Shown piece by piece: positions 6,681 to 49,577 of a stretch of DNA of 64,000 bases. The DNA comes from Thermomicrobiales bacterium (lineage in GTDB: Bacteria > Chloroflexota > Chloroflexia > Thermomicrobiales > UBA6265): positions 59,808 to 123,807 of the forward strand of contig JAWKPF010000009.1 in the NCBI GenBank assembly GCA_041390825.1. Reading direction: 5' to 3'. A model generated the notes under the pieces. The model ran no database searches, was not told the origin of the DNA, and saw nothing but the letters and a program-made list of their open reading frames with translations. Made by a program: the position numbers and the translations under genes. Positions within the stretch are counted from its first letter, which is position 1, and each line of letters starts with the position of its first letter.

Positions 6681-7331
6681 GAGGCGTCACGTATGAGGTC
6701 TCAGATCTTATCCAATTCAGAACGACTGACTGAGTCTGGCTCGACGGTCGTCACTCGCTACGTTCTCCTCGGGACATCGGCTCGTACTGGTATCGTGTCG
6801 CTCCCGGCCTGGGTGGGAACGCCCAGATCCAGGCTGATTGCCACTGTTCACATGGTATGCCAGTACGGCGTCGATTGCTCGCGGCTTGAGGATGACTCGA
6901 ATTGACACCCTTCAGCAATTTACCTGGCGAAACCCGGTCGGGCAAACAGCTACCGCTGCAATTACTTCTTTGCAGGGATACTTGTCCGTTTCCGAATCTA
7001 GTAGCGTGCTTTCATACTCGTCCGCTGCCGATCCGTTCCCATAGATCCATGAGAGGAAGTTACCTGTAGCTTGGCTCGACCTGCGTTGGATACGGGCGCT
7101 GATCGCGTGTTGGGCTCTACCGGTGTCGGATCCGGGACCATGGTGGTGCTCGAATCGCTGATCGCACATGCGTTTTCGGAACACAGGTGACGAGAGTTCG
7201 AAGTTCAGGGAATCGGAAACGAAATCGGCAGGATTGCTTCTGCGCGAGTCCAAAAAGGAAGTCGCGTTGGGATCGTTGCCACTTGCGAATACGAAGAAGG
7301 CTTTGAGCTGAGGAAGCGGAGAATCAGTGCC

Positions 7332-23359: not shown

Positions 23360-23434
23360 GGTACGCCCGGCGTGACTCGAACACGCGGCCTCTTGCTCCG
23401 GAGGCAAGCGCTCTATCCACTGAGCTACGGGCGC
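23360..23434 (-). tRNA. tRNA-Arg (anticodon CCG)
   Basis: Hand-folded from the reverse complement. Acceptor GCGCCCG/CGGGCGT (G1:U72), D arm GCTC-AGTGGATA-GAGC, anticodon arm CTTGC-CTCCGGA-GCAAG, variable AGGCC, T arm GCGTG-TTCGAGT-CACGC, discriminator A, then CC (the final A is not encoded). Confidence 0.9.
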
Positions 23435-32842: not shown

Positions 32843-33881
32843 GTGCAGGGCACCAAGGTGCGTGCTACAACAGACCAGTCTATGTGCGACCACTCCCCTG
32901 CCCACTCGCGCTACCGCCTCCATCCTTCTCGACGCCGAGACTACCCCCTACATCTCATTGATCAAGGGTTACCTATTCTTGAGTCGCTCAGCGCCATGCG
33001 TTTTGCCACCCACGGGCAGCTCACCAATCTGCACTTCGTGAATCGACTCAACCGGCAGGGTCGATCTCGCACCTTTGGTGGAGCCGATCGAGCCGGCCGG
33101 AATCGCACTCAAACGCCTCTGGGAAGCGGGATTTATCGAGCGCCGCCTGGTAATGATGGCCAGTCGAAGCACCGGACTCGGGTACCAGCACTTCGTCAAT
33201 GTACTGACCGCCAATGGACAACGGTCGGTGTCGCCTGATATGACGCGCCCTCGAACGATTTCGATCAGTCACCAAACGGTGGACCATTCGCTGGCTATCA
33301 ATGATTTCTACGTACTGATTCATCGTGCGGCAGAATTGCATGGCATCGCAGTGCATGACTGGCTGGACGATCGCCAGCTGACTGCCATGCAGGTCAAAGG
33401 ATCGCTCAAGCTGGTGTCGATCCCAGATGCGTTCTTCGTCTTGGCCTACCACGGCAGATACTTCGGTCATTTCTTAGAAATCGATACCGGAACGGTGCGG
33501 GTGGGCAGCCGAAAACGCGCTCGCAGCTGGACCCAAACCATCGCCAATTACGGAACGTACTTTCGCGAGCACTACCCACATGACGGTTTCTTTCGGGGTT
33601 TCAGTGCGCCCATCGTGCTAACCATCACGAGGAGCAATGCTCGACTGGAACACTTGTTGACCGCCACCAAGCATGCTGGTGGTGCCGGTGTCTACTGGTA
33701 CACAACCAAGGATCAAGTTGAGCCTATCCGAAGAGACGCCGAATCAAAGAAAGTCACCGCATTCGAGCCTGAGGTGCTGTGGCGGCCGATATGGCGAGTA
33801 CTCTATGATCGCGCTCCCCGCTCGCTGTTGGATCGACTGGAACGCAGTCCTAATCCGCCAAAGCGTCTGGATCGCGTCTAG
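32843..33881 (+). pseudogene. replication-relaxation family protein, one frameshift as sequenced
   Basis: ORFs 32843..33238 and 33075..33881 join at the T-run 33074-33076: LPILESLSAMRFATHGQLTNLHF.. (wHTH) then ..LKRLWEAGFIERR..HSLAINDFYV..IPDAFFVL..FLEIDTGT. Confidence 0.65.
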
Positions 33882-33995
33882 CGCCGTCGCATTTCGTAAG
33901 GATGACCTATGGAAGGTCTGACACGGCCAAATCAATCCTAGAGGCATTGACGGCCCGCAAAAGCGGCCATGGATTGTGGTTTGGAAACGTTGAAC

Positions 33996-34442
33996 TTACG
34001 ATGCTATGGGTAATGCGTCCGACTCGACCCACGGATCAATGACCAAGGCACCAGTCACAGCAAAGTGTTTGGTGTTGCGGGTCAAGACATGCAGTCCGCG
34101 GCGCAGGGCGGTGGCCGCAATCAATCCGTCACCGACAGGTACTTGGATGCCTTCACTTTGAGCGCGAGCAGTCAGTTCTCCCCACAGTCGAGCCGTTTCC
34201 AGATCAATGGACAAGATGTGATCGGCGTAGCGTTGCTCCAGCTTGGTCTGCCAAATGGAGAGTTCCCGTTTTCGCGATCCGGCTGACAGTTGGGCGATGC
34301 CCTTCGCCAGCTCCCCCATTGTCACTACACTCAGAAACATCTGTTCCGGATCCAGAGCGGCGACATAGTCGCGTACCTGAGCATTGCCTTTGGGTCGTTG
34401 GATCTCAGACAGGACGCAGGTATCGATTAGAACTCTTACCAC
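33996..34442 (-). CDS. vapC: type II toxin VapC (PIN domain)
   Basis: 148-aa ORF with PIN acidic residues in VLIDTCVL, MGELAKG and VGDGLIAATAL. Overlaps the antitoxin by 7 nt. Confidence 0.85.
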   Translation of the reverse strand: MVRVLIDTCVLSEIQRPKGNAQVRDYVAALDPEQMFLSVVTMGELAKGIAQLSAGSRKRELSIWQTKLEQRYADHILSIDLETARLWGELTARAQSEGIQVPVGDGLIAATALRRGLHVLTRNTKHFAVTGALVIDPWVESDALPIAS

Positions 34443-34675
34443 GTCACCTCACGCATCGGCGTCTGGTCGCGATCCAGATCCAGATCGGTCAGATCGGGAC
34501 CAGAAAGAAGGAAATCCTTGAGTGACGGCCGTTCACCAGTCAGGCGGTCGTAGTCTGCTTCAGAGACCATCACCACCGTGTCACCACGACGACGAATACG
34601 TTGGGGACCCTGCTCCAGCGCCTGATTCATGACTTCGCTCAGTTTGTTTTTTGCTTCGGCCAGTTGCCAGCTCAT
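34436..34675 (-). CDS. type II antitoxin, Phd/YefM-like
   Basis: 79-aa ORF, MSWQLAEAKNKLSEVMNQALEQGPQRIRRRGDTVVMVSEADYDRL. Confidence 0.75.
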   Translation of the reverse strand: MSWQLAEAKNKLSEVMNQALEQGPQRIRRRGDTVVMVSEADYDRLTGERPSLKDFLLSGPDLTDLDLDRDQTPMREVTW

Positions 34676-34740
34676 GGGGTGGATTCTCCAAAATGGCTAG
34701 ATGATCTAGCTAGGTAATTTTATCATGAGCGGTCGTGCCC

Positions 34741-35688
34741 TCACGCACGTTCCTTCAAGCCAAGCCGTTCTTCCACCACCGAGAAAAAGTAGGCCATGGG
34801 TTTCTGTGGTCGATTCTTTACCGAGTTGCGCATTTCCTTGGTCGAGGCGCGTGCTTGAAACAGCAGATCCACGAATCCGTCGCGACCAGCTCCGCTCTGC
34901 TCGAACAGATTCATGGCTCGGGAGACCGATGACCGCGTCGGTGCTTGATCCCCCAACTCTTGCGCAAACCGTTCAATGACCGACCCAATGGCTTGGCGAT
35001 CCTCGGTCATGGCAATGCGCTTGGGAGCACGGCGAGCCACCAAGTCCTTGAGCGGCGAATCAGTGGGTTTGGCTGTCGTGCTGGTTGCCTGCTGATATTC
35101 CGTTTTTCTGGGATGGACGGATTTCTGTCGGTCGCCGTCATCGTCTGCTAAGAATTCATTCGTCGAAGTATTCGAAGATTCGAAATCTGTATGTTGTTTG
35201 ACTGTATGTTGTGTGGGGACTTTTTACCCCACGGGCCTGGGGTACTTTCTCCCCCACCCCCTGGCGTACTTTTTCCCCCACGGGTACCGCATCGACGTAT
35301 TTCTCTGATGAAGCACCGCTCATATTCAGCCGGTAGCTGGTCGGTTCGTCTCCCGATCTTTACTACGACGTCGCTCGGTGACGATGATGTTTTGGGTTTC
35401 AAGACTGCGGATGGCTTGCAACAGCGTCTTCTTGGTCAGACCAACGCCGGAGTCCAGCTGACGGCCGTCCTGGGTGCGAATGCCGTTCAACATCTGAGAC
35501 AGCGAGATGTTGTCACTGGCCTTCTTGAAGCCGAACGTCCGCCGCGTGATATACAGCAGCACCTTCAGTTCCCCTCCGGAGAGAATCGGCAGCAGTTCGT
35601 CGAGGTATTGATCTGGCACCTGGGTGGTGTTGGGTGAAGTGACGCCAGCAAATCGAAAGGTGGAGCTGGTGGACTTCAGGCGAGGCAT
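34741..35688 (-). pseudogene. plasmid/phage-type replication initiator (Rep-O/DnaD-like wHTH N-domain), two frameshifts as sequenced
   Basis: N-domain ORF 35326..35688 (QVPDQYLDELLPILSGGELKVLLYITRRTFGFKKASDNISLSQM). Hand reading continues ..GDEPTSYRLNM..VGEKVRQGVGEKVPQARGVK.. and then into ORF 34741..35043 (..KNRPQKPMAYFFSVVEERLGL). Shifts lie at the C-run 35352-35354 and the T-run 35221-35225. Confidence 0.6.
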
Positions 35689-35710
35689 GGGCTCCCCTTC
35701 CTGAGACTAA

Positions 35711-35800
35711 ATCCGTACGGACGTACGTGCGATCGATTAGCTGACCGTCCGAACGAGCGTACGCCCGTACGCCCGACCGTCCGGAGGTTCGTCCGAACGA
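35711..35800. repeat. iteron-like repeat cluster between rep and the par genes
   Basis: Four CGTACG hexamers (35714, 35722, 35758, 35766) and two CGTCCGAACGA copies (35746, 35790). Related copies occur at 35979, 35987 and 31646-31659. Confidence 0.55.
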
Positions 35801-35812
35801 TCAGGCGCAAGC

Positions 35813-36241
35813 TCATGCATCCTCCGGCCTTGGATGATTGGCAAGATACTCGTCAATCGCCAGCCGCACCATTTGGCTCATATTGCCGGACCCACCTTGG
35901 ATGCGTTCTTGCAGCGACCGATCTTTCAATTCCGCAATCTGGTCTTGGTAAAACTCAAAGGCGTAGCGACTGACCGACCGTACGGGCGTACGTCCGACCG
36001 GACGAACAGACGAACGCCCGTCCGTATGTGCAGAGACTGTTGGTTCAGCGTCAACGACTGTTGTAGGAGGTGCTGGTGTTCGAGGAGCACGAGTCGCCTT
36101 CACAGGAGCCGCTTTCTTCGGTGGAGCAGGGGAGACCTCGGCAGTGGGCTCCTCATCAGGTTGCTCGACAGGGCTCTTAAAATATGAAGAGGCACCCTTC
36201 AGCTCGTTTTGGACTTTGGTTAGGTCGTACTTCTTGTTCAT
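35813..36241 (-). CDS. ParG-like / ribbon-helix-helix partition adaptor
   Basis: 142-aa ORF with a Pro/Ala-rich disordered N-half and an RHH-like C-terminus RYAFEFYQDQIAELKDRS..MSQMVRLAIDEYL. Located downstream of parA. Confidence 0.5.
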   Translation of the reverse strand: MNKKYDLTKVQNELKGASSYFKSPVEQPDEEPTAEVSPAPPKKAAPVKATRAPRTPAPPTTVVDAEPTVSAHTDGRSSVRPVGRTPVRSVSRYAFEFYQDQIAELKDRSLQERIQGGSGNMSQMVRLAIDEYLANHPRPEDA

Positions 36242-36638
36242 GCTGTGGCCTTACTTCGGCTGGTCTCGATCTGTTCCTTTAGATCCTGGCAACCAGCGAG
36301 GTTGTTGATCTTGATTTCGTTCTTGTCGTTGCCCACTGACAGCGCAATCGTGCCGTAGTCGAACTGCGAGGCGATCGGGCCAACACTGGTGGAGACGGAA
36401 TGGATGTTGGCCAGGGAAAGCGCTTTTCCTGAATCGTTAGGAGTCCTTGCTTGAGCGTGACGCCGGTGTCGTCGATCAACACGCTAGTTCTGGTGTAGAG
36501 CAGGATCGATCGGGCGATTAGGACCACCCCGATGAGGGGAACCACGACGGTGAAGGAGGCGAACACGCTGGCGAGAAACCAAAAGGCGATGGACAGCAGA
36601 GTCCAGGCTCCGCTGACGCGGTACTGAGTAGATTCCAT
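36238..36638 (-). pseudogene. membrane protein with bacterial PH (bPH_2/YdbT-like) domain, one frameshift as sequenced
   Basis: ORF 36279..36638 has two N-terminal TM segments, then LIDDTGVTLKQGLLTIQEK. After the T-run 36424-36427 the reading continues in another frame as ALSLANIHSVSTSVGPIASQFDYGTIALSVGN.., ending in a TGA that overlaps the next ATG (ATGA at 36238-36241). Confidence 0.5.
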
Positions 36639-36640
36639 AA

Positions 36641-37393
36641 CTAAACGCTAAACAGCTCTCCAATAAGCCGCTCATACGCCTGAGATCCTTTGGAACTGGC
36701 GTTGTAGGAGAAGATGTCTTGCTGGTTGAAGTGGGCATCACGCAGATCGACGTTCTTCGGGATGATCGTGTTGAGCACCGAGTCGCCATAGGTCTGGCGC
36801 AGCAATTTCAAAGAGTTCTTGGTATTGATAGTTGGCTCGCTCATGGTGAAGACGAACCCAGCCAACTCCAGTTCCGGATTGAAGTGAATCTTGACCTCTT
36901 CGATGGTCTTGCCCATCTGGACGGTCGAGTCAAGCTCAAAGTAGCCAGGGGAGACCACCACCAACACCTTGTCAGCGGCCGTGAAGGCATTCAGCGTCAA
37001 CCAGGACAGTGCGGGAGGGCAATCGATCACCACGAAGTCGTAGTCGCCTTTGACCGCCTCCAGCGCCGCTTTGAGGCGAGCTTCACGGTGATCAATGGCG
37101 GTCGTCAGTGAGATGTCTGTCTCAGACAACAAAATGTGCGACGGCACGATGTCCAAATTGGGAATCGACGTAGGGGAGATCGCCAAAGGTTTGCGATCGA
37201 TGATCGTCGCGTACAGCGTTCGATCTTTAGAAAATTCTTGGTAGTTGGGTAAAACGACCTTGGAGGAGTTGGCTTGGGAGTCCGTATCGATCAGAAGGGT
37301 CCGCTTGCCACGATGGGCAAGTCCGGCAGCGAGCGATATGGATGTGGTGGTTTTGCCAGTCCCACCTTTTTGAGAGGCAACAGCGAGAATCAT
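36641..37393 (-). CDS. parA: ParA/Soj family partition ATPase
   Basis: ORF 36641..37483 trimmed to the ATG at 37393 (GGAGGAAA upstream). Deviant Walker A MILAVASQKGGTGKTTTS. Confidence 0.88.
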   Translation of the reverse strand: MILAVASQKGGTGKTTTSISLAAGLAHRGKRTLLIDTDSQANSSKVVLPNYQEFSKDRTLYATIIDRKPLAISPTSIPNLDIVPSHILLSETDISLTTAIDHREARLKAALEAVKGDYDFVVIDCPPALSWLTLNAFTAADKVLVVVSPGYFELDSTVQMGKTIEEVKIHFNPELELAGFVFTMSEPTINTKNSLKLLRQTYGDSVLNTIIPKNVDLRDAHFNQQDIFSYNASSKGSQAYERLIGELFSV

Positions 37394-37539
37394 TTTCCTC
37401 CAGGTCAGCCACGGTAGTGCCCGCGAGCGGGGTAGCCACACGTGATTGTGGTGATACGTCCATACTGGACATAATGCAAGCAAGTGTCAAGCTGGAATCA
37501 CAGCTTCCCTGGGAAACCATTAACTGCATGGAGTAGCTA

Positions 37540-39156
37540 TCAGGATCCTTGGGCGACGAGTCGTCGAAGTCCGACCTTAATATCACTCACCAAAACTTCT
37601 CCACCGCTTGGCTCAAAGACCGAGATCCAGCCGAGTGAGGCAAACTCTTTAAGGACTGATTCAACCAGCAGTGTCGGCAGCTCCAGGGCTCGCGCGATCG
37701 TGTCACTGTCAGTCGTTCCTGCAACGACAGACGTGGCGATCTCTTGGCGCTCCTGCTTGAACTCAGGGTGTGTTTGTTGAAAGTAGAGCCGTAAGGCACG
37801 GGGAGTGACGGTGATTGCCGCTGGAACTGAGCCAGCCGCGATGACCCACGCAACTTCAATGTGCCCCTTGCTCTCAAGGACCTCGATCGCATCATCAAGT
37901 TCTTGTCGGCTCAGCCCGTCAGTAAGCAGCATCTGGCAAATCGAATCGCCGTCGAGAAAATCTTGGCCTGCAGCCTCAGCCTGACGACACGCCGCCCACA
38001 ATACTTTGATATCGGTTTCTGTTAATCCAGCTATCGCCGCAGTCGTTTCATGGTTGGTTGGTGTCGGATGATACAGGGAAGCGCCAGCGGTACCGAGATC
38101 TTTTCTCATACTCTGCGCGAGTTTTTCCAAGAGCTCGGCCATCCTTCCAACAGAGCTTTCTTTAACGGAGATCCGTTGGCCGAGCTTGAGTGCTAGATCA
38201 CCGGTTTCGTCGAGGTACTTTTGATCAACTATTCCCTGTTGATGCTCCAAGAGGTGCCGTTGTTGGAATAGCTTCTGCAGTTGTGCCCACTCTTTCGGAT
38301 CCAGGGTCTGAGTGTATGAACGGCCACCAGCTTGCGTCCAAAGCCGGTCGCCCCTCGACAAATTTTGAAATGCATTGCGACTAGGGACAGTTGTGAAGTT
38401 TGGTAGGCGAGGATAGGAGATCTCGGCAAACCGCTGAAAAGCGGTGACGAGATTGCCGATCTGCCCCTCTAACATATCTCGCTGATACTGATCTATGAGA
38501 TTGATATCACCACCACTTGCTGCGATCAAGGCCACCGCCTTACCGACCGACCGCGCCTTCGTTAGGGTCTGGTCAAATGTCTGCCCGGCCGAGTTATGGC
38601 CGCAAGCGGGGCAAAAGAATCCAGAGCCAATCACTGCAAACTGACAACCACAGGATTCGCACTCGATTTGCAGAGTCATAAGATCGGCGGCGATAGGAGG
38701 GACGGGCGCTAACCGGGGGCTTGCCTTGTACTCAGCTGAGACAGACACCATTTCACGGGAACGACGACGGCGATTGATGCTGCGGGCGAAATCCCCGAGC
38801 ATCTTGTCGAGATGGCCCTGCGCTTCCGCCAAGGCAGCGCTTCTTACATATTCCGCGAGTTCATCCGTGTTGAAAGCTTGGGGCTCGGCCTCAACGCGAC
38901 AGAATGGGCAATAGGCAATGGCTTCGGGAACCTTTTCCTTCCAATGCGCGAAGAGAACCTTAAATGGTCGCCCACATTCGTCGTCGGGACACTTACGATC
39001 CCAATATCCTTTGTCATCAAGCTCGATAGGCACCTCTATGCGAAAAATTTCCGACACGGCAGGACCTCCAGAAACACGGATGGCGTTCGATTTAGCGAAC
39101 TTGAAGAGTAGACCATGCGTTCTAAGATACGGCTGAACCTTGTTTCTGTCGACCAC
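37540..39156 (-). CDS. orphan 538-aa protein: two zinc ribbons + HEPN-like R-x4-H region + C-terminal wHTH-like repeats
   Basis: The ORF is intact. Cys pairs CPDDEC..CPFC (residues 56-86) and CESCGC..CPAC (166-185). QQRHLLEHQQG at residues 298-308 (nt 38242-38259 encode RHLLEH). No family recognised. Confidence 0.6.
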   Translation of the reverse strand: MVDRNKVQPYLRTHGLLFKFAKSNAIRVSGGPAVSEIFRIEVPIELDDKGYWDRKCPDDECGRPFKVLFAHWKEKVPEAIAYCPFCRVEAEPQAFNTDELAEYVRSAALAEAQGHLDKMLGDFARSINRRRRSREMVSVSAEYKASPRLAPVPPIAADLMTLQIECESCGCQFAVIGSGFFCPACGHNSAGQTFDQTLTKARSVGKAVALIAASGGDINLIDQYQRDMLEGQIGNLVTAFQRFAEISYPRLPNFTTVPSRNAFQNLSRGDRLWTQAGGRSYTQTLDPKEWAQLQKLFQQRHLLEHQQGIVDQKYLDETGDLALKLGQRISVKESSVGRMAELLEKLAQSMRKDLGTAGASLYHPTPTNHETTAAIAGLTETDIKVLWAACRQAEAAGQDFLDGDSICQMLLTDGLSRQELDDAIEVLESKGHIEVAWVIAAGSVPAAITVTPRALRLYFQQTHPEFKQERQEIATSVVAGTTDSDTIARALELPTLLVESVLKEFASLGWISVFEPSGGEVLVSDIKVGLRRLVAQGS

Positions 39157-39412
39157 CCCAAATGTGAACAGGGGCGTCCATCGGCAGTTCCTCGATCGGC
39201 GAAAGGGTCACTTGCGTTTCAGCGGTATAATGTCTCCGATAACACCCCGGAGAAAAACCCTTGAATGCCTGATGAAATTCCACCTGGACCGTACTCTGTG
39301 ACCCCGCAACAATTCCGAGGCCACAGCAATAAAGCTCACAAGCCATCCTGGCCAAAGCATTTCACAGGAAGCTGAGCGTCGGCGCTGAATTAGAAGTCGA
39401 TGGAGCTCAATA

Positions 39413-40271
39413 ATGGCGACTACGGTGACGGAGTCATTCCGAGGTTGCAAATCCAACTTGGAGATTACTGACCTGCAACAAACTACAGTGGCAAATAGGC
39501 AAAAGAGCGTTCGTGATGCAGTTTCTCGAAAAATGAATGTCATCGATTCATTCGTCACCGGTTCTTATAAGCGGCACACCATGATTAGCCCGCTGAAGGA
39601 CGCAGACATAGACGTTTTCCTAATTCTCAATTCGAGTGAATTTGCGTCTGACGGCTATACAGCGCTCTTGGATAAGGTTCGAGCCGTCTTGCTGGAGACC
39701 TACCCTAGCACGCCCAAGATCAGTCGAAATGGACAGGCAGTCACTATAACGTTCACCGACTTTGTGGTTGATGTAGTGCCTGGTTTCCATCGGAAGGGCG
39801 GGGTTACTTAATCCCGAGTACACCAGAAAAGCGTTGGATACCCACGAACCCAAAAGTTCACGAGACCGCGATCACAGCCGCCAACGAACTGCACAATGGC
39901 GATCTCGTTCCACTTATTAAAATGATTAAGGCGTGGAACCGCGAAATTAGCAGCCCGTTCAGATCGTTCTACCTAGAGCTCATGGTTGAAAAGCTGCTGC
40001 GCGGCGTTACCATCAGCAGCTTTCCAAGCGGATGCAGGTACGTATTTGACAAGGGCCGTGTACAGATCAAATCGAAAATTGCAGATCCCGCGGGTTTCAA
40101 AAACCAGCTGAATCCCTGGGTACGGGCAGCGTAGAAGAGGCGGTACAGCGATTTGAGACCGCATATGGCAGAGCAATAAAGGCTGAGCAGCTGGACAAGA
40201 GCGGAGATTCCGCAGCTGCCGTGGCTGAGTGGCAAAAGATCTTTGGCAGTAGCTTTCCGGCATACGGCTAA
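39413..40271 (+). pseudogene. SMODS-type (CD-NTase-like) nucleotidyltransferase, paralogue 1, two frameshifts as sequenced
   Basis: VTGSYKRHTMISPLKDADIDVFL (G-S..DxD), FVVDVVPGF (third acidic residue), then after the shift at 39804-39805 ..NPKVHETAI..LIKMIKAWNRE..RSFYLELM. After the shift at 40124-40126 the tail ..AVAEWQKIFGSSFPAYG ends at the TAA at 40269-40271. Confidence 0.65.
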
Positions 40272-40277
40272 CTAACT

Positions 40278-41155
40278 ATGACGTCACCCAATTTGAAGCA
40301 ACCCACATTCGACGACATTGCGCGCAACCAGAACCAAGATGCGATCCTCAGGTTTATGCTGGCTTCGCGTCACTACTATGCTAGAGCGCGATGGATTCAG
40401 TACCTCGGGACCTGGGGTGCGATTGCTTTCGCGCTTGCAGCCCCAGTGGTGCTGCTGTTCTATCGGATCGAGGTCCACTGCTTGGCGCACTTGCTGGTCT
40501 TTGGATTTTCGCATCGCGTTTAGGACTTTCTCGCCTCAGAGCGTCGTACCAACGAAAGGGCGCGACCGCCCAAGAACAATTCGATTGCGCAGTTTTTCGT
40601 CTCGACTGGAACAAGACCATTGCGGTGCCTCTTTCCCCTGAAGAGATTCGGCACGCCAGCGGAAATATGAACGGAATCGACGCGATCCGAAACTGGTACG
40701 CCACTCCCGGAAAAGTGGATTGGCCGCGCAGCGTTACTCTCTGCCAAAGGGCGAATGCGGTATGGGCTCGCCGACAGCATCACTTATTTGGTGTGGTGCT
40801 GTATGTTGCCGCGACTACTTGGGCCGTAGTGGGGATTTTAATAGCAGTCTGGCAGGACGCTTCACTCAGTCAATATCTGACGACGATTGCACTGCCGTCT
40901 CTTCCGGCCCTATTAGACGCAACGGATCTTGCTCAGGAACACATCGAGTCATCGTGGGCCCGAGGGAGGATTGAGGTGCGTCTGGATGGTCTGTTGGATG
41001 ATGGAACAGCTACAAATCTCGATATCCGTGAAGTCCAGGACGAACTGTTTGACTTGAGAAAGTCATCGCCCATTGTTCCCGAGTGGTTCTATAAAATAAT
41101 CAAACCCGGCTACGAGGAAGATATGACCTACGCTGCAGAGACAAGGATCAACTAG
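40278..41155 (+). pseudogene. four-TM putative pore-forming effector (S-4TM/SLATT-like), one frameshift as sequenced
   Basis: ORFs 40278..40523 and 40391..41155 join near 40464. There are two TM hairpins (WGAIAFALAAPVVLLF/LLGALAGLWIFASRL and HHLFGVVLYVAATTWAVVGILIAV/LTTIALPSLPALL) and the loop EQFDCAVFRLDWNK. The family name is from memory. Confidence 0.55.
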
Positions 41156-42030
41156 TGACGCTCACGGTCAATGAAGGTTTTGAATCGTTTCTCACGCGGC
41201 TCACACCGACTGCGGCCGAGCGCTCTGCGAGTGCTAAGCATCGTGAATCCGTTAAATCGGCACTTGAAGCGAAATTCACCGTTAGCCGCTTCTTTGAAAC
41301 TGGATCGTTTAGTCACGGCACAGGGGTGCGGAGCTTTAGCGATGTCGATGTTTTTGTCAGTGTCAGTGGCTCCCGGCCAGATTCGTCGTATGCCACTCTG
41401 GAAAAGATTCGCAACGCCCTTGCTGAGCGTTTTCAGGTAACTCTGGTGACGATTGATCGTCCAGCGGTGAAGGTCAAATTCGCTCTCGGCACGGAGACCT
41501 GGGAAGTCATCCCAGCCTACGAAGCAACGCAGGATAGCTACGGGCATCTGATCTATGACATTCCCGGCGCTAGTGTCGGATCTGGTTGGATTCAGGCAGC
41601 CCCCGATGCGCATCTCACGTATGTCAATGCCTGCAATGAATCCCCCTCCCGTGGCACGGGCAAAGCGTTGGCGCGGCTGGTTAAGGCTTGGAAGTATTAC
41701 TGTAATGTCCCGATTTCATCCTTTTATCTCGAAATGCGCGCTGCTCAACACGTGTCTTCCGTCGAGACCTACATTCACGTCTGGGACATTTGCTTGCTAT
41801 TGGAAAAGTTGAACACCCATCAACTGGCCAGCATGAACGATCCAGCGGCAGCCTCCGGTCGAATAAATGCGTGCTCTAGTGATGCGAAGCGGGAAGAAGC
41901 ATTGTCCAAGCTCGCTACGGCTGCCGTTCGATCAAGAAACGCGCTAGACGCGCATAAGGCGGATAAGGCCGACTTGGCTTTTTACTACTTAGGTCAATTG
42001 TTCGCAGGACAGTTTCCTAGCCGCGCTTGA
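41155..42030 (+). CDS. SMODS-type (CD-NTase-like) nucleotidyltransferase, paralogue 2
   Basis: Intact 291-aa ORF whose GTG overlaps the preceding stop by 1 nt. ETGSFSHGTGVRSFSDVDVFVSV, WEVIPAY, APDAHLTY, LVKAWKYY..SSFYLEM. Alignable by eye to paralogue 1. Confidence 0.7.
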   Translation: MTLTVNEGFESFLTRLTPTAAERSASAKHRESVKSALEAKFTVSRFFETGSFSHGTGVRSFSDVDVFVSVSGSRPDSSYATLEKIRNALAERFQVTLVTIDRPAVKVKFALGTETWEVIPAYEATQDSYGHLIYDIPGASVGSGWIQAAPDAHLTYVNACNESPSRGTGKALARLVKAWKYYCNVPISSFYLEMRAAQHVSSVETYIHVWDICLLLEKLNTHQLASMNDPAAASGRINACSSDAKREEALSKLATAAVRSRNALDAHKADKADLAFYYLGQLFAGQFPSRA

Positions 42031-42072
42031 AGAATTTGCTGTTTTAGATGGTAAGAGCGGTATTCGTGAAAA

Positions 42073-42096
42073 GCGGGTCGGTTGTGGCCGACCCGC
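42073..42096. terminator. GC-rich hairpin between convergent genes
   Basis: GCGGGTCGG-ttgtgg-CCGACCCGC. Confidence 0.5.
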
Positions 42097-42103
42097 AGAT
42101 ATC

Positions 42104-42310
42104 TCACTCGATTCGCGTTCCCGGTCCGATAGCCAGCTTTTGATCCGTCTCGGTCATCATCGGCACGATGCTCAGATTCATGGTGTGAACACGAGCGTAG
42201 TACTCCCGAATATTTTCCGCAGCCGAATCCAGATTCGTTTCGGGCGGAACAAACACCAAGATGCTTCGCCCGGCCTGCAGGCTCTCCAGCAGAAGATCTT
42301 CCCCATCCAT
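42104..42310 (-). CDS. hypothetical small protein
   Basis: 68-aa ORF preceded by GAGAGGAG, downstream of the recombinase. No family recognised. Confidence 0.35.
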   Translation of the reverse strand: MDGEDLLLESLQAGRSILVFVPPETNLDSAAENIREYYARVHTMNLSIVPMMTETDQKLAIGPGTRIE

Positions 42311-42368
42311 TGACGTTCTCCTCTCACGAGCCGCCAGCCAATCTGACGACTCAAGTCGAGGAGGGCAG

Positions 42369-42632
42369 TTATTTACTGATAGTGAAGAGCTGGGCGCGGC
42401 GACCTTGGCGGCGCAACGCCTGGCTAATGCTGTGTCCCACAGCCTGCAAACGTAGATTATCGGCCTGCGTGACCACTAATACGCTTCCTGGTGTCATTTG
42501 TCTAGATTCGTTCTCCCATCGAGCCAGTGAATCGAGTTCGCTGGCTGGAACCAGCGCAATGTTATCCAGGGATGTTTCGATCCGGCGCAGCGACCTCGGA
42601 GCAGGGGAGTAGTAGGGTCGGCGATACCTCAC
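42369..42632 (-). CDS. hypothetical small protein
   Basis: 87-aa ORF whose start overlaps the recombinase stop by 4 nt (42629-42632). No family recognised. Confidence 0.35.
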   Translation of the reverse strand: MRYRRPYYSPAPRSLRRIETSLDNIALVPASELDSLARWENESRQMTPGSVLVVTQADNLRLQAVGHSISQALRRQGRRAQLFTISK

Positions 42633-43516
42633 AGACTCGTTTCCTCCATCACCGCCGCTTCGTTCTCTCTTCCCAAATGCACATAAACCATCGTGGTGTC
42701 GAGCTTGGAGTGACCCAGTAAGCGCTGCAATTGATACGGTGAGACCCCTTTAGATGCCTTCACGGTGGCGAATGTGTGCCGCAGGGCGTGGCATGAAGCC
42801 TGTTTGGTTATGCCGGCATTCTCCCGGTACTTGGTCACCAGCATTCGCACGCCGCGTTCGGTGATCGCTCCGCCATCCCGCTCGTTGGTGAAGATGTGGT
42901 CGTGAGAAGCACTCGGTCGCAGCTGCAACCAAGTCTTGAGCGCCTTGATCCCTTTCGTCTCCAGTGAGATTTGGCGTGCATTCATGCCTTTGCCCGATCG
43001 AACTGACAGCTGCTTGGCCTTGAGGTCGATGTCATTGATGCGCAGATTGCAGAGCTCGGAGACCCGGATCCCAGTTTGCAGAAACACCGTCAGGATGCAG
43101 TAGTCGCGGGGATTCCCAGCTGCCAAAGAGAGCATGCGGCTATATTCATCGGGCCGGAGCCAGGCCTTGCCGTTGTGCTCGATCTTGGGGGTATCGACGC
43201 CGGTTGCCGGAGATTTCTCCAACAGGTCCATGTTGACCAGGTAGCGGCAATACTCACGAATCGCTGCCAGCTTGCGAGCTCGACTGACCCCGGTCAGTTT
43301 GCGTTCACTCAAAGACGCCAGGAAGTCGATGATGTGCACCCGCTGGATATCAGCCACCGTTTCGACGGTGGCATCGTTTTCCACGACCCACCCAAGAAAT
43401 TGCTGCAAATCGGTGGAGTAGGCCAGGACGGTTTTGGGTGATCGGTTCTTGCCGGCCATCGATCGATAGAAGCCGTCGAGGCTGGTTTGGAAATAGGCGG
43501 GGAGTGGAGTAGTCAT
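42629..43516 (-). CDS. tyrosine recombinase/integrase (XerC/D-like)
   Basis: ORF 42629..43573 trimmed to the ATG at 43516. SAM-like N-domain, catalytic ARQISL.., HALRHTFAT, LLGHSKLDTTMVYVH. Confidence 0.88.
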   Translation of the reverse strand: MTTPLPAYFQTSLDGFYRSMAGKNRSPKTVLAYSTDLQQFLGWVVENDATVETVADIQRVHIIDFLASLSERKLTGVSRARKLAAIREYCRYLVNMDLLEKSPATGVDTPKIEHNGKAWLRPDEYSRMLSLAAGNPRDYCILTVFLQTGIRVSELCNLRINDIDLKAKQLSVRSGKGMNARQISLETKGIKALKTWLQLRPSASHDHIFTNERDGGAITERGVRMLVTKYRENAGITKQASCHALRHTFATVKASKGVSPYQLQRLLGHSKLDTTMVYVHLGRENEAAVMEETSL

Positions 43517-44019
43517 ATGTGGCAACCCTTTCGTTGTGGTTCCACCTTCCCACTTTGGGTGGTTGTGGCACAACGACGCAGAGTTGAAAAACGAACTTCC
43601 GAATAACGGGCTGTAGATCCATTATATGGAAGTAAGGCACTCCAGCGTCAAGAGGGCAATTTCTGCTTGAAACCAGGGCAAAAGAGAAATCCGGCCACAA
43701 TGCGACCGGATCGATGGCTTCCGGGAAGAGGTGTTATCGGAAGTGGCTGGCATCCAGACAGGAGACGAGTTAAGGCACGCATGTCTCATTCCTCACATTT
43801 CGCCATCAAAATCCGGAAAATCCGTAATGGCGATGAGCCATAATTCTTGTTATCGTGGTACCCCAAGCAATTCGATGCGGGTCGATCAGTGAGAGAGAAC
43901 CCTCTATCCCTGTCGACGTCGAGTGCAGACTCAAGTCGAATTTCCGTATACAAAAGCTAAGAAACAACCTCATGAGATAGGCCCGTTTACCCCGTCATCT
44001 TCTTTGAAAGGAGTGGCAG

Positions 44020-45207
44020 TTGGCAGAGGCGAGTCTAGTAGGCACCGTGATTTGGTATGACTACAAGAATGGCTGGGGCAAAATTCAGCCGCATGGTACG
44101 ACCGAGGAAGTATTTGTTCACTGCACTTCGATCCTAACCCCCGAGCCAAAAATCCTGATGATCGGGGAAGCAGTCAGCTTTGAGAAGGGGCAGAACGACC
44201 GGGGGCCAGTGGCGACCAATGTCCAACGCCTGGAGACCAGAATACGAGGAACGGTCGATAGCTTTAACAAGGCACGCGGATTTGGACACATCGTTGACGA
44301 TACCGGTAAACAATACTGGGTCCACCATACCCACATCATTGGCGGTCGCTATCGTGTGCTCGAACCGAAAGAGTTAGTCGAATTCACCCCTGAGCAATCG
44401 CCCAAGGGACCGCAAGCTATGCGGGTCTGGCGGTACGACACACGGTTATCCTTAGACCGATTCGCTGTCCTGGGTGACCTCAATCGGCGCCTCGAGGAGC
44501 TTGCACGGCTCGCTCAGGAAGAAAGTTGGGACTATAAGTTCACCGAGTCGCCAACTCCCAGGCCGATTCTGCAAAGTTACCTGTATCACACCTTCGACCG
44601 GCTTGAAAAAGAAGGAAAGATTGCGGTCACGATGGATGGGACTCGGCGCCTCTCCGCATTCAATACCGGACTGGTGACCGAGCTGCAGGAACAAATCTTT
44701 GCGCTGTTCGGTGAGCATCGTCGAAGCAACCCGCAGGCACCCGAGTGGCAGTTGATCGAATTTGTCACCGAAAGTGATCGACGCTTGACGGTGTTTCCAG
44801 AGCGCCCGGATATCGCGAATTACTTCACCGACCCGGCAGACCTTATTTACGATTCGAATATTGAACTGGTCGTGGACCTGCCGCATGTCGTCAATGACAA
44901 CCGCAACCGCTTTCCTCCAGAGTTGCGCAGTAACGACTACCTGATGCAATCGACGCTGAACGCGGCTCTATCCTCGGCCAAGCGCCGGGTGCGGGGCAAT
45001 TACAAAGCCGCGATCCCGCAATACCACCATGACCGGCTACAGCTGCTCTTGCCGTTGTGCCTGCTCAAGCCAAATCGGGCCGATCTCGCCCTGGTCGTCG
45101 ATCGACAAAATCATGTGTATTACGGGTCCACGGTGCTGCCGCTCGACTGGGCGTATAAGAATGCGCGCCTCATTGCCCGACCTGATCGGGAGTGGCTCGA
45201 ACCCTAA
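44020..45207 (+). CDS. tandem cold-shock domains fused to a DUF3825-like domain
   Basis: 395-aa ORF with a TTG start. CSD 1 is GTVIWYDYKNGWGKIQP and CSD 2 is GTVDSFNKARGFGHIVDD. The C-terminal part ..LEELARLAQEESWDY..PILQSYLYHTFDRLEKEGKI resembles DUF3825 (from memory). Confidence 0.65.
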   Translation: MAEASLVGTVIWYDYKNGWGKIQPHGTTEEVFVHCTSILTPEPKILMIGEAVSFEKGQNDRGPVATNVQRLETRIRGTVDSFNKARGFGHIVDDTGKQYWVHHTHIIGGRYRVLEPKELVEFTPEQSPKGPQAMRVWRYDTRLSLDRFAVLGDLNRRLEELARLAQEESWDYKFTESPTPRPILQSYLYHTFDRLEKEGKIAVTMDGTRRLSAFNTGLVTELQEQIFALFGEHRRSNPQAPEWQLIEFVTESDRRLTVFPERPDIANYFTDPADLIYDSNIELVVDLPHVVNDNRNRFPPELRSNDYLMQSTLNAALSSAKRRVRGNYKAAIPQYHHDRLQLLLPLCLLKPNRADLALVVDRQNHVYYGSTVLPLDWAYKNARLIARPDREWLEP

Positions 45208-45235
45208 GTGACGGTAATCAGCAGGAATAGAAACA

Positions 45236-45259
45236 GGGGTGGCGTCGAAACGCCACCCC
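45236..45259. terminator. bidirectional GC-rich hairpin
   Basis: GGGGTGGCG-tcgaaa-CGCCACCCC between convergent ORFs. Confidence 0.55.
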
Positions 45260-45277
45260 AGGTTGGGTGATTGAGGC

Positions 45278-45691
45278 TCAAGAGAGCCGAAGAGACGGAT
45301 AGATTCCGCGCCATGTGTCGACGTGCTCGTCGAGGGTGACGGCCCACCCGCGATCGGAGAAGGTCTGCTCGATCTGCTCTAGCAAGCCGGTCGGCATGTC
45401 GCAGGTTCCAGCCTCGACGTCGCAACAGCCCGCCTGGAACATGAGCATGGCGAGGTCTACATTGACCGCCATTCTTGGTGCACTCGATGGCTGCGCCGCG
45501 ATGAGACACCCATCAATGTAGGTGAGGGCATCCTCCAAAAGCACGCCGTTTGTGCCGGCAGGATCGACAACTTGCGAAACATCACTCGCCAACATGGAAT
45601 CCTCCTGCTGCAGTTCACCCGCACCACTTGGTGCTTCGGCAGCGAGCAGGGCTGGAGCCGTGACTCCAGCCGCGATCACCACCGAGAACAA
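45278..45691 (-). CDS. hypothetical, probably secreted, Cys-containing protein
   Basis: 137-aa ORF with a TTG start and a short hydrophobic N-terminus. No family recognised. Confidence 0.35.
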   Translation of the reverse strand: MFSVVIAAGVTAPALLAAEAPSGAGELQQEDSMLASDVSQVVDPAGTNGVLLEDALTYIDGCLIAAQPSSAPRMAVNVDLAMLMFQAGCCDVEAGTCDMPTGLLEQIEQTFSDRGWAVTLDEHVDTWRGIYPSLRLS

Positions 45692-46019
45692 AGGAGGATG
45701 ATAAATTTAGTATAGCAAACTATAGGCTTCCTGTCAATGGGGCGGGCGGCTGCTGAATGCATGCATTGCTGCCCCTTATGGCCACGTTTGACTCATAAGA
45801 TTCTGACTCAATGCCCCGCACTAGGGAATCTTAGTTAGTGCAGCGGGCGACAATCAGACTGAGATCGCCCAAAACTACCATGTGAATCAAGTTGCTCTAC
45901 GACCAGTTCATTTCAACAGAAATACGCGTCATTGGATTTGCGAATGATTGACTTCTACACTACCGCTCATTACATTGTGTGTGATTGAGCGTGCGCAGCC
46001 ACGGAAAGGGAATGCAGAC

Positions 46020-46370
46020 ATGCAAGATCGTACGCGGCTAAGAAATGATCTCTTGGAGGCTATTCAATCTGAAGGTCTGCCTGGGGTCATCCGGGTTTCG
46101 TATCTAATGGTTGATCCTGACGGGATCTCGGCGGAATGTATCGCAGAGGCAGACAATGCCTTCGAATCTGCGGCTAACGCGGACCAGGTGTGGGACGCTG
46201 CTCTCGGCATGGCCGACTGCTTGAGGAATGCCCCACTCTTCGACGTGGCCGAACCTGAGGAACCGGAGCCCGAGCCTGATCCCGTACCTGACCCCAATTT
46301 TGGAGGTGGTAAGGTCAGCACGGTGGGCACGCAAGTGCTGGCTGCCCTCCTAGTTCACCTCCGCAAGTAG
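46020..46370 (+). CDS. hypothetical acidic protein
   Basis: ORF 45948..46370 trimmed to the ATG at 46020. PEEPEPEPDPVPDP low-complexity tail. Confidence 0.35.
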   Translation: MQDRTRLRNDLLEAIQSEGLPGVIRVSYLMVDPDGISAECIAEADNAFESAANADQVWDAALGMADCLRNAPLFDVAEPEEPEPEPDPVPDPNFGGGKVSTVGTQVLAALLVHLRK

Positions 46371-46449
46371 TCCAAGGCTGGTACCCAATTTTCGAAGCCG
46401 GCGAGAGAGGGAAGGTTCGACTGTATCGCTGCTGAGCCTCAGTGTGAGT

Positions 46450-46962
46450 CTAGAACTGATCCGGCGGGTACGGCGTATCCGTGGACGGACCCTGGTCCCC
46501 CCAGGTGGCATCAACGGCCCTGCGGATTTCGGGGAGCGACTGACCCTCTGAAAGCAGTTGCATCACGTCACGCGTGACTCCAATGCAGATGTCTCAGCCA
46601 AAGCTCATCGCGTCAAGCGCGACTGAGCCATCCTCCCGAATATCCCGAACATAACAATCAAAATTGTTTCGATGTCCACCCGACATGCACCCGCAAAAGC
46701 AAGGCATCCATTGCAAGGTTTCATAGTTGCTGACGGCGAACTTGTAGGCCTCGCGAATGTCAGAAGGGGATTGCTCGACCTCCGGTGGCCAGATGTCGTC
46801 TGCCGGCCAAGCAATCAAGCCCGCCGTTGAGCGGCCCGGACCTTCAGATCGGGAGCACCCAACGAACAACAGGGCTCCGCTGAGCAGGCTCGCATTCAAG
46901 AGCGTGCGGCGCGTCAAGCAAGCTTTGGGGTGATAGCGTCGGCGGTGGGTTGAGGCTGCCAT
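46450..46962 (-). CDS. PCYCGC motif-containing lipoprotein with an in-frame TGA (46594-46596)
   Basis: ORF 46594..46962 has a lipobox-like LLFVGCS and MPCFCGCMSGGHRNNFDC. The same frame stays open for 47 more codons after the TGA (DICIGVTRDVMQLLSEGQSLPEIRRAVD..), and these match the remembered C-terminal part of the family. Confidence 0.6.
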
Positions 46963-47438
46963 GTTGATCCCTCTAATGTGAGCACTCGTACTCGCTAGCG
47001 CTGGAGTCTACTACGGCGATGCGCCTCCGTCGCAGATGCCGTGATCATGAGCGTGGAGCGCCACTCGGCCGTACGCTCGACATTTCTGTGATCCAAACCG
47101 GGTATTCAGGCTGTCCAGCTGCGCTTGCGGTAGAGTCGGCATGGTGCGCCAACTTCCCGCGTCGTTTGATCGCCGGTGCCTGCACATCGCTAATACCACG
47201 GCATCAGCTCGACTCGCCCAGGGCAGGTTTGTCTGTACCTCGCGAACGACAATATCCGCCCAGGTGGCTCTCGCGCATGCGGCTCCCACGACTCGAGGCT
47301 GCCGCCCGACGCGAATAACTATTCTGGGTCACAACAACAGAACGTGATCGACGCGGAAATGCCCTCGATTATGCCGCTCGAAGGCCGGGCCGCTGTGTAT
47401 GCTTTGTGGTCAACCCTCAGGCTGTGGGGACTGCATCG

Positions 47439-48020
47439 ATGCGAGGGACCTTGGTGGACGATCGCCTCTTTCATAGCATTAATGGATTCAATGTCCGGTA
47501 TGGTGGCATGGACGATGCTTTCGGGGCCATTGCCATATATTCGCCCTTCGTGTTCGTGGCGCTTCTGCTCGGGATATGGTTCTGGCCACGTGATCTTGCT
47601 GGACGCGAAGACCGGCAATGGTCATGTATGGTGGCGGTGGGAGCGACGTTACTCTCCTTAGGGATCAATCAACTCATTATCCAGGTCTGGCAGAGGCCAC
47701 GTCCGTTCGCCACCCATGCTGCCCTTGTCCTTTTGCCCAGGTCGCCGGACCCGTCGTTTCCAAGTGACCATGCGACCTTTGGGTTCGCTGTCGCCGTCGC
47801 TATCGTGTTGGCGCAGCGCCGCATTGGCCTCCTCGCGCTTGCACTGGCAACGGCGCTGGCGTTCGCCCGAGTTTATGTTGGCGAGCACTATTTGGGTGAT
47901 GTGATCGCTGGTGCGCTCATAGGCACGGTCTCGGCAATTCTGGTTTTTCGGATGCGCCCGCTGGTGTTGCCGTACCTAGGCCCAATTTTGCGCTTGGCGA
48001 GGCGCGTGCGACTGGCGTAG
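47439..48020 (+). CDS. PAP2 superfamily phosphatase
   Basis: ORF 47406..48020 (alternative ATG at 47439). Motifs PRPF, SFPSDHA, ARVYVGEHYLGDV. Confidence 0.8.
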   Translation: MRGTLVDDRLFHSINGFNVRYGGMDDAFGAIAIYSPFVFVALLLGIWFWPRDLAGREDRQWSCMVAVGATLLSLGINQLIIQVWQRPRPFATHAALVLLPRSPDPSFPSDHATFGFAVAVAIVLAQRRIGLLALALATALAFARVYVGEHYLGDVIAGALIGTVSAILVFRMRPLVLPYLGPILRLARRVRLA

Positions 48021-48286
48021 CCACCGAGGGCGCGCCCGAGAGCAGACGCTGCATTCAGCCCGGTAGCATCAAAACCCGCCGTTCGATTCCCGATCGTCCA
48101 TCGCGGCTGTTCGTGTCCTAATTTCCCGGCACGGTCAGTAAGAGTTCACTTTGCCGCTAACAGGCGGCATATTTGGTTTAGTTCTGCGCCACCGTCAATC
48201 TAGTACACTCGGCCGAAGGCGTGAATTCTTATTCACACATTGGCTGACAACTCGTTGAAGGTCGCATTGCGAGCAAGGAGTGAAAA

Positions 48287-48760
48287 ATGTCTATCAGCCG
48301 ACGATTGGCGGTAGGGGTCGCGATGTTGATCCTTGGTGCCGGCGTGTTCTCTATCGGAAGCTATTCGATTGGAGAGGCCCATGCGGAGGTCGATCGATCG
48401 AACCCGGCTGTAGGGGGGCATGTGGAAAAACTCCCGGAGGAGATTGAGATCTTCTTCACCCAAGAAATCAACGCAGACGGGACCGTCATTGAGATCGTGG
48501 GACCCAACGGTGCACAGGTCGATGGGGGCGACACCACGCTTGATCTTATGGATCCAGACCGCAAGCGGGTAACTATTTCGATCAAGAGCGATGCGGGGCA
48601 TGGTATCTACACCGTCCGCTGGACGACTCAGTCTAATGAGGATGGAGAAGAAGCAAGCGGTAGTTTCGAATTTACCGTTGGTGAGTCGATGAAAGGCACT
48701 CCCGCCGCGTCTCCGATCGCAAGTCCTGCTGCATCGCCAAGCGGTAGCCCAACGTCATAG
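48287..48760 (+). CDS. copC: CopC domain copper-resistance protein
   Basis: 157-aa ORF. A signal peptide, then HAEVDRSNPAVGGHV.., YTVRWTTQSNEDGEEASGSFEFTV. Confidence 0.8.
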   Translation: MSISRRLAVGVAMLILGAGVFSIGSYSIGEAHAEVDRSNPAVGGHVEKLPEEIEIFFTQEINADGTVIEIVGPNGAQVDGGDTTLDLMDPDRKRVTISIKSDAGHGIYTVRWTTQSNEDGEEASGSFEFTVGESMKGTPAASPIASPAASPSGSPTS

Positions 48761-49002
48761 CTTGAGTTTCGGCTCGCACTTGCTCAGATCGTGCCGCGTG
48801 TCCCGTGCTAGGTCATTGTCGGCAGCTTTATGCCCGAACTCTGACATGATGGAATAGACGGAACGGCACGCGCGAGATTTTCTCCCCACCATCATTCGAG
48901 ACTGGTGCTTGAGATGGTCGGGCAGGGGGATACAGCGTAGAATGCAGAGATTCAAACATGTGAGTAAGAACTCAGCCCTCACGTGGTGTCGGTTTGCTGT
49001 GA

Positions 49003-49425
49003 GTGATCCGTGGTATGGCTCGACCTCGAAAAGTAGATCAATTGGCCGACGTTGACGATCTGGTGTGCGAAGAGCGCGTGGTTCACGTCGATGCGGTTCG
49101 TGACGCGAGACGTGATCTGCCGGCTCCGCGCACGGTCGTCGGCTTGGTTGAATTGTTCAGTGCACTGGGCGATCCGACCCGGTTACGTATTGTTTCGTCC
49201 CTTGCGGCACGTGAGTTATGCGTTTGCGATATCGCTGCGGCAATTGGGCAAAGTGAATCGGCCGTCTCTCATCAACTGCGATTGCTGCGCAACCTCGGGT
49301 TAGTGCGATCGCGTAGGGAAGGACGTCGTGTCTATTACGCGCTTGACGATGAACATGTTTCAGCGCTGTATGCCCAGGCGATCGATCACGTTGGCCATCA
49401 GGAAACGCAACCGCAACAATCCTGA
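49003..49425 (+). CDS. ArsR/SmtB family metalloregulator
   Basis: 140-aa ORF (GTG at 49003, alternative ATG at 49015). [47 protein letters not shown]. Confidence 0.85.
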
Positions 49426-49577
49426 CATCGTTCTGGATCGAATGACGTGCGCGCGGCCAGAATGGACAGCCGAGAAATGACCCATCTTGATCCCAGCATC
49501 CCCTCCTGGAATCAGCTCAAGTTGCATGAGCGTTCGTCGGGCTGCCAGCCGACTGGACTGCCGATGAATCCCGGAAG

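Follow-up and report, generated by a model that had tools for sequence, protein, structure and literature searches.

A cyclase-effector-cyclase operon in the Thermomicrobiales window

A 64,000-nt stretch of contig JAWKPF010000009.1 from a Thermomicrobiales bacterium (hereafter, the window) carries a candidate CBASS (a signaling system against phages that is based on cyclic oligonucleotides) at positions 39413-42030 of the plus strand, in which two cyclase genes flank the gene for a single membrane effector. The first gene, G1 (39413-40271), encodes a SMODS cyclase of the cGAS/DncV-like nucleotidyltransferase (CD-NTase) type, which is spread over three reading frames in the window and gives a protein of 286 amino acids (aa) once two 1-nt homopolymer deletions are restored. 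The second, 4TM (40278-41155), encodes an S-4TM effector split over two frames, with a length of 292 aa once one 1-nt deletion is restored. The third, G3 (41155-42030), is intact, begins with a GTG start codon and encodes a second SMODS/CD-NTase cyclase of 291 aa. The three genes are co-directional and tightly packed: 6 nt (40272-40277) separate G1 from 4TM, and the stop codon of 4TM shares 1 nt with the start codon of G3 in the sequence TAGTG (41153-41157). This layout, including the gap and the overlap, had been reported in a preliminary description of the locus and was confirmed from the sequence. The same description had proposed SMODS cyclases next to an S-4TM effector, and profile searches returned matches for both above curated thresholds. 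All family assignments given here were made on frame-corrected translations.

Two divergent predicted cyclases

G1 matched the Pfam SMODS family (PF18144) with an E value of 1.1e-23 and 84.7 bits (cutoff 26.5), the PADLOC cyclase model PDLC00823 over its full length (E = 1.1e-94), and the NCBIfam equivalog CBASS_cyclase_b (NF041117) at 205.9 bits, which passes the cutoff of 200. G3 matched the same Pfam family (E = 1.6e-14, 54.9 bits, same cutoff) and the PADLOC cyclase model PDLC00776 (E = 1.3e-114, 380 bits), and reached 105.2 bits against CBASS_cyclase_b, below its cutoff. Both families are large, with 2104 relatives of G1 at E <= 1e-20 from several phyla, named "CBASS oligonucleotide cyclase" by NCBI, and 1023 relatives of G3 at E <= 1e-10. 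The closest solved structures to G1 are 6p82, 6p8u and 6p8j (E = 1e-31); 6p82 is also the closest to G3 (E = 8e-12), with 6p8u and 6p8j again among the nearest. We take all three entries to be CdnD of Pseudomonas aeruginosa, a type III CBASS cyclase. G1 and G3 are 26% identical to each other over their full length (BLASTP, E = 6e-24), and their alignment bears out the paralogy proposed earlier, with the shared blocks TGS, D.DVF, P..H, KAW and SFYLE.

Each protein carries the pol-beta nucleotidyltransferase signature, consisting of GS, [D/E]x[D/E] and a third acidic residue, and this signature is conserved in their homologues. In G1 it comprises GS at residues 50-51, D66 and D68 within DADIDVF, and D120 within VVDVVP; in G3 it comprises G50 and S51, D63 and D65, and E117, and the GS, DxD and E positions are invariant in alignment A1. 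Orthologues of G1 keep GS and DxD with either D or E at the third acidic position. In every locus where two cyclases flank a 4TM gene (a sandwich), the full catalytic motif is kept in both, with G3 reading GS..DxD..E in all of them. Judged by these residues, both cyclases look active.

The glutamate of G3 had previously been regarded as a special D-to-E change in the second copy, pointing to a heteromeric or two-signal synthetase. This view of the residue was abandoned, as glutamate occupies the third acidic position in 85 of 88 members of the G3 family, the majority being the only cyclase in a two-gene system, and some orthologues of G1 also have E there. The residue is a family-wide state in G3, was ruled out as a marker of a special second copy, and is therefore not evidence for a heteromer.

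Degenerate motifs do occur elsewhere in the family. Two orphan G3 homologues (L036 and L040, positions 6001-6867) have no effector gene nearby and read GAAAK and GSDDN at the catalytic positions, compared with GSDDE; these proteins are likely inactive or repurposed.

A predicted S-4TM effector

The middle gene matched the Pfam family S_4TM (PF18159) with an E value of 3e-71 and 240.6 bits (cutoff 26.9), covering profile positions 2-289 of 291, and the PADLOC 4TM effector model PDLC00722 (E = 4.1e-77). Its hydropathy profile contains two strongly hydrophobic segments, residues 40-64 and residues 169-193, and after each of them a weaker segment. An AlphaFold2 model built with 41 homologues (predicted local distance difference test score 93.3, predicted template modeling score 0.89) is all-helical, with hairpins formed by residues 21-61/63-107 and 151-192/197-242 and additional helices at the C-terminus. 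The earlier view of this gene as encoding two transmembrane (TM) hairpins thus agrees with hydropathy, model and family match. A fold search of the PDB with the model gave no significant match (best E = 0.13); a weak, non-significant resemblance to alpha-pore-forming toxins was seen. Pro63 is invariant in an alignment of eight sequences (A2) and nearly invariant in one of 41 (A3).

Frameshifts in the window assembly

Two contigs from other sequencing runs were used to evaluate the interrupted frames of G1 and 4TM. The first, L081, is a Logan short-read contig of 13,085 bp from run SRR32022410 that matches window positions 35817-48896 at 99.94% identity. The second, L119, is a contig of 2,972 bp from run SRR1027651 that differs from L081 by one mismatch and no gaps. 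Over the parts shared with the window, the identity of each contig to it is at least 99.94%. Both encode an intact G1 of 286 aa and an intact 4TM of 292 aa. The window differs from L081 by three substitutions (45360, 45375 and 48218) and five indels and, in a base-by-base comparison, all five proved to be 1-nt deletions in single-base runs of the window. The first frameshift in G1 lies in a G-run at 39800-39803 (GGGG in the window, GGGGG in L081 and L119), the second in a C-run at 40114-40116 (CCC instead of CCCC), and the one in 4TM at 40464 (a single C instead of CC). The conserved Pro63 of 4TM is recovered only with the L081 reading at 40464. The preliminary description had thus recognized the three frameshifts and corrected them in essentially the right way, with positions that were slightly off, the second having been placed at 40124-40126. 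The remaining two deletions are found in an A-run of the non-coding region 39157-39412 (near 39330) and near 36413, where the window sequence disrupts an unrelated bPH_2 gene of which L081 has an intact copy.

These frameshifts are most likely assembly errors, because two independent assemblies contain intact copies of both genes. The comparison bears on the possibility, raised as a caveat before, that the locus is decayed in the Thermomicrobiales source organism, with G1 and 4TM as true pseudogenes and G3 as the sole survivor. The distribution of the deletions would fit such decay to a degree: three fall within the 1.75 kb of G1 and 4TM and none within G3, so that these two genes hold three of the five indels in the 13 kb that could be compared. 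Yet the two short-read assemblies agree with each other without gaps and have the genes intact, every one of the five indels has removed 1 nt from a single-base run, as is usual for long-read consensus error, and two of the five lie outside the operon genes altogether, one in the bPH_2 gene and one in non-coding sequence. Decay is thus highly improbable, and a pseudogene reading was rejected on the comparison with L081 and L119. Over the whole window, the assembly probably has an indel of this kind about every 2-3 kb, and caution is therefore in order with its other split open reading frames (ORFs).

Conservation of the gene order and its variants

A G3 profile run against species-representative genomes yielded 80 loci whose context was analyzed, and further loci were obtained from a metagenome scan with the 4TM protein and from gene-context look-ups. 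The most frequent arrangement among the 80 genome loci was a 2TM effector gene followed by G3 (45 loci), with the reverse order in three. This 2TM effector has about 175 aa and matches the PADLOC CBASS 2TM model PDLC00710 as well as Pfam SLATT_4. Six loci had the order cyclase-4TM-G3 (L001, L002, L003, L008, L010 and L011), where the upstream cyclase is of the G1 type except in L008, in which it belongs to a third cyclase family (cx). Another two had 4TM-cyclase-G3 (L007 and L041), three had 4TM-G3, and ten had a more distant cyclase followed by 4TM.

With all sources combined, the cyclase-4TM-cyclase order was present in at least 13 distinct loci, whose proteins are 45-65% identical to those of the window, and the three-gene arrangement is thus conserved beyond the genome of the window, as the preliminary description had asked, and turns up in numerous unrelated bacteria. 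Among the best 120 relatives of G1, of 4TM and of G3, many coincide in the length of their longest contig, an indirect sign that the trio is widespread. The exact order G1-4TM-G3 was found in L001, L002, L003, L010/L011, L091, L092, L093 and L100, and also in L110-112, L116, L117 and L081/L119. The proteins of the sandwiches are 56-65% (G1), 43-52% (4TM) and 59-64% (G3) identical to those of the window. At the junctions, neighboring genes overlap by as much as 11 nt or lie as much as about 50 nt apart, with 6 nt or less in most cases. A comparison of locus contexts revealed no second effector and no conserved fourth gene near the sandwiches. Among the loci found via 4TM with enough flanking DNA, eight had two cyclases and six had one.

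The same components also occur in smaller sets. G3 is the sole cyclase, with an effector of the window's 4TM subfamily upstream, in L083 and L088/89; G1 is the sole cyclase 5' of a 4TM-subfamily effector in L087 and 5' of SLATT_4 in L106 and L108; and the third cyclase family is paired with the 4TM subfamily in L096/97. When G1 is alone its effector lies downstream, and when G3 is alone its effector lies nearly always upstream. The sandwich can therefore be described as two canonical two-gene layouts overlapped on a shared effector. In one further variant, L086, the order is 4TM-G3-cyclase.

Three other contexts were seen among these loci. In L118 (1-5732) genes for Tn7-like TniB and TniQ are found, and directly downstream of them a 4TM-cyclase-cyclase operon whose two cyclases are G3-like. 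Its 4TM protein is indexed in 33 collection blocks, which suggests that the operon is transposon-borne. L114 and L115 are type III CBASS operons with AAA (Trip13-like), Cap8 and bacHORMA_2 genes, and their 4TM proteins are 48-52% identical to that of the window. In L108 (2668-5428) the G1-type cyclase and SLATT_4 genes are preceded by those for a helix-turn-helix protein and a Peptidase_M78 protein, a pair similar to the module of two proteins that is reported to regulate transcription in some CBASS operons.

The variety of contexts bears directly on the proposal that G1 and G3 form a heteromeric or two-signal synthetase, acting as a complex, supplying two different nucleotides of which neither suffices by itself (an AND gate), or making a mixed product. 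At only 26% identity, different products or triggers for the two enzymes are plausible, the stop/start overlaps suggest that the proteins are co-translated in fixed amounts, and in 4TM both the TM2-TM3 loop and the C-terminal helices are conserved soluble regions. However, members of both cyclase families mostly occur as the only cyclase, and the 4TM subfamily pairs with G3 alone, with G1 alone, with the third family alone and with type III cyclases regulated by HORMA. G3 in turn has interchangeable partners, namely G1, cx or another G3-like cyclase, and in a neighbor-joining (NJ) tree of 4TM, built without bootstrap, single-cyclase, dual-cyclase and type III contexts are intermixed. With the D/E difference accounted for as a family trait, a joint synthetase is unlikely, and the obligate heteromer put forward in the preliminary description in particular finds little room where each family occurs alone with an effector.

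Apparent mobility of G3

Two of the genome loci provide a view of how G3 may be exchanged. The nucleotide sequences of L006 (2TM-G3) and L008 (cyclase-4TM-G3) are 93% identical over precisely the G3 ORF (6001-6868) and nowhere else, and the ratio of nonsynonymous to synonymous substitution rates (dN/dS) of G3 between them is 0.09, which indicates purifying selection. This comparison suggests that G3 is exchanged precisely, as a cassette of one gene, between different effector contexts. An NJ tree of G3, also without bootstrap, places sandwich and other contexts among each other, and a single origin (monophyly) of the sandwich G3 genes was unsupported by it.

A cassette of this kind could be a mere passenger beside a G1-4TM pair, or a gene that has lost its own 2TM effector, sending no signal to 4TM in either case. 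The confinement of the L006/L008 identity to the G3 ORF is what a discrete cassette would produce, and the mixed contexts in the G3 tree and the weak co-divergence of G1, 4TM and G3 point in the same direction. The same gene, though, is found in 4TM-G3 pairs that have no other cyclase or effector nearby (L083 and L088), where G3 must use 4TM. Its junction with the 4TM stop codon is conserved and tight, its catalytic residues are kept under the low dN/dS given above, and the sandwich persists across 45-65% amino-acid divergence. We consider a passenger role rather unlikely, if the least so among the alternatives weighed here.

Proposed function and relation to known systems

On balance, this locus is probably a functional type I CBASS anti-phage operon in which one S-4TM effector is served by two divergent CdnD-like cyclases, a reading that draws on family membership and comparative genomics. 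In such a system each cyclase would independently sense a phage cue and make a cyclic oligonucleotide, the product of either one would activate 4TM, and the activated, pore-type effector would damage the membrane and abort the infection. Enzymatic activity, the identity of the signals and the response of a single effector to both are presumed in this scheme. The resulting OR gate would let the system respond to more triggers or give it a fallback against phage counter-measures. Two independent sensor-synthases are favored because each family works alone, the same 4TM subfamily serves any of them and the partners are interchangeable, and because both cyclases keep their catalytic residues under purifying selection.

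Two observations weigh against this interpretation. The assembly of the window has frameshifts in G1 and 4TM and, if these were real in the strain, G3 alone would be functional. In addition, when sandwiches are compared in pairs, the divergences of their three genes correlate only weakly (Pearson 0.22-0.52), so the trio has been reshuffled rather than strictly co-inherited, which fits a looser association too. No claim of strict co-evolution of the three genes is made on these identity matrices. A joint synthetase, a guard arrangement, a passenger G3 and a decayed locus are nevertheless all less likely than two independent synthases serving one effector.

The guard arrangement is suggested by systems with inverted logic. 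One cyclase would make a constitutive signal that restrains the effector or serves as bait, the other would make the activating signal, and removal of the constitutive one by a sponge or nuclease from a phage would fire the system. Such inverted logic exists in Panoptes and PanDA, which combine a minimal CRISPR polymerase or a diadenylate cyclase with a 2TM-beta effector (PMC12657218; bioRxiv 10.64898/2026.08.10.743972). In the operon described here both cyclases are ordinary SMODS proteins from families that also occur in standard two-gene CBASS, and the effector belongs to S_4TM instead of the 2TM-beta type, features that set it apart from Panoptes and PanDA and make a guard or decoy role very unlikely. 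More generally, it is doubtful that the two cyclases make different signals that are integrated by one 4TM through combinatorial (AND or heteromeric) or guard-type logic; if true, this would be the first CBASS in which a single effector processes two input signals.

Classification followed the type I CBASS scheme of Millman et al. 2020 as implemented in PADLOC. A cyclase and an effector are present in one operon, in the same direction and with PADLOC models matching both, and no Pfam or PADLOC matches to the ancillary proteins Cap2/Cap3, HORMA/Trip13 or Cap6-8 were obtained in neighboring genes. The usual layout of one cyclase per operon does not apply, as the effector has a cyclase on either side. 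Since PADLOC already has hidden Markov models for the three proteins, the locus would most likely be labeled a plain type I CBASS by standard tools.

Several known systems share part of this architecture. The type I CBASS CdnD12-4TM of E. coli defends against phages (bioRxiv 10.1101/2023.05.21.541620) and likewise has a cyclase adjoining S-4TM without ancillary Cap genes, so that G1-4TM alone fits this type; however, CdnD12-4TM has one cyclase, and the operon in the window adds a second, 26%-identical one after the effector with a 1-nt overlap. Type I CBASS of the kind in which 2TM/SLATT_4 is followed by a cyclase (PDLC00710 and PDLC00776) shares the cyclase family of G3 and the effector-first order, but its effector is a 2TM protein of about 175 aa, whereas that of the window is a 292-aa S-4TM protein with another cyclase before it. 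Type III CBASS, where HORMA and a Trip13-like ATPase accompany CdnD, contains the closest solved relatives of G1 and G3 and shares the 4TM subfamily, as in L114 and L115, but its HORMA, Cap8 and AAA genes are absent from the window operon and from every sandwich.

Departures from a simple cyclase-effector pair have also been described. A diadenylate cyclase (CdaG) and a CD-NTase have been found beside one 2TM-beta effector, where a response to both was asked (bioRxiv 10.64898/2026.08.10.743972). That arrangement is similar in placing two nucleotide-signal synthases next to one shared membrane effector, but its synthases have unrelated folds and its effector is 2TM-beta, in contrast to the two SMODS paralogues and the S-4TM effector here. 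The CBASS operon VvCdnG09-CapV-Cap5 has one cyclase and two effectors (bioRxiv 10.1101/2023.05.21.541620); it also departs from the one-cyclase-one-effector stoichiometry in a type I operon but is the mirror image, with one signal leading to two effectors instead of two synthases to one effector. A published CBASS operon with two CD-NTases was not found in literature searches on such operons and on S-4TM effectors, with a prior mention in Burroughs et al. 2015 or Millman et al. 2020 being possible.

The arrangement of two divergent cyclases sharing an effector, being both conserved and widespread, stands in contrast to the description of CBASS as one sensor-synthase coupled to an effector. It offers a natural system in which to ask about the specificity of cyclase-effector pairing and whether one effector reads two signals, and also about the stacking of sensors for wider phage recognition or for resistance to anti-CBASS proteins. 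Both the activation of type I cyclases and the S-4TM effectors are poorly understood, and the apparent movement of the G3 cassette shows how CBASS systems are rebuilt. If the two cyclases are merely redundant, the operon extends the CBASS catalogue in a useful but modest way.

Genomic surroundings

Upstream of G1, a divergent intergenic region of 256 nt (39157-39412 in the ORF map) is the presumed location of the promoter; a promoter scan of this region found no convincing match to the sigma-70 consensus, its results being at background level. At the other end, a GC-rich hairpin with arms GCGGGTCGG and CCGACCCGC (42073-42096) was read from the sequence 43 nt past the stop codon of G3. It sits between G3 and a convergent small ORF of 68 aa on the minus strand (42104-42310), and likely marks the end of the operon. 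The hairpin was not detected in a scan for terminators with a T-tail, which performed at background level.

The operon lies inside a region of lowered GC content, 52-55% at positions 36000-46000 compared with about 58% elsewhere in the window. Divergent from the operon is a gene for a 538-aa protein (37540-39156, minus strand) with several CxxC pairs and no Pfam family. Residues 37-187 of this protein match the PADLOC phage-defense candidate PDC-M14A (E = 3.7e-14), and it may be a second defense gene on the same island. Beyond it, still within the GC dip, is a ParA gene (36641-37483, minus strand). On the other side of the operon, the 68-aa ORF is followed in the ORF map by another small ORF (42369-42632) and by a gene for a tyrosine recombinase (42629-43573), both on the minus strand. 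Taken together, the region 36000-46000 looks like an acquired defense or mobile island. Only short and imperfect att-like repeats were present around the integrase, and no plasmid match was obtained for window positions 33000-50000. Carriage of the operon by phages was also considered and rejected, as none of the viral contigs encodes the window's 4TM subfamily.

Adjoining the island, a gene at 44020-45207 (plus strand) encodes two cold-shock domains fused to DUF3825 (Pfam, E = 4.3e-74), with a weak match to the PADLOC model CSD_V. The sole RNA gene of the window in ARAGORN and Rfam searches is a tRNA-Arg (CCG) at 23360-23434 on the minus strand. Around the island, at 15413-18190, 28832-30781 and 46594-48760, lie genes for two P-type ATPases along with copper-related ones, for which the annotation of L081 gives PCYCGC and CopC domains. 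This setting suggests a region of metal resistance that is possibly part of a large mobile replicon.

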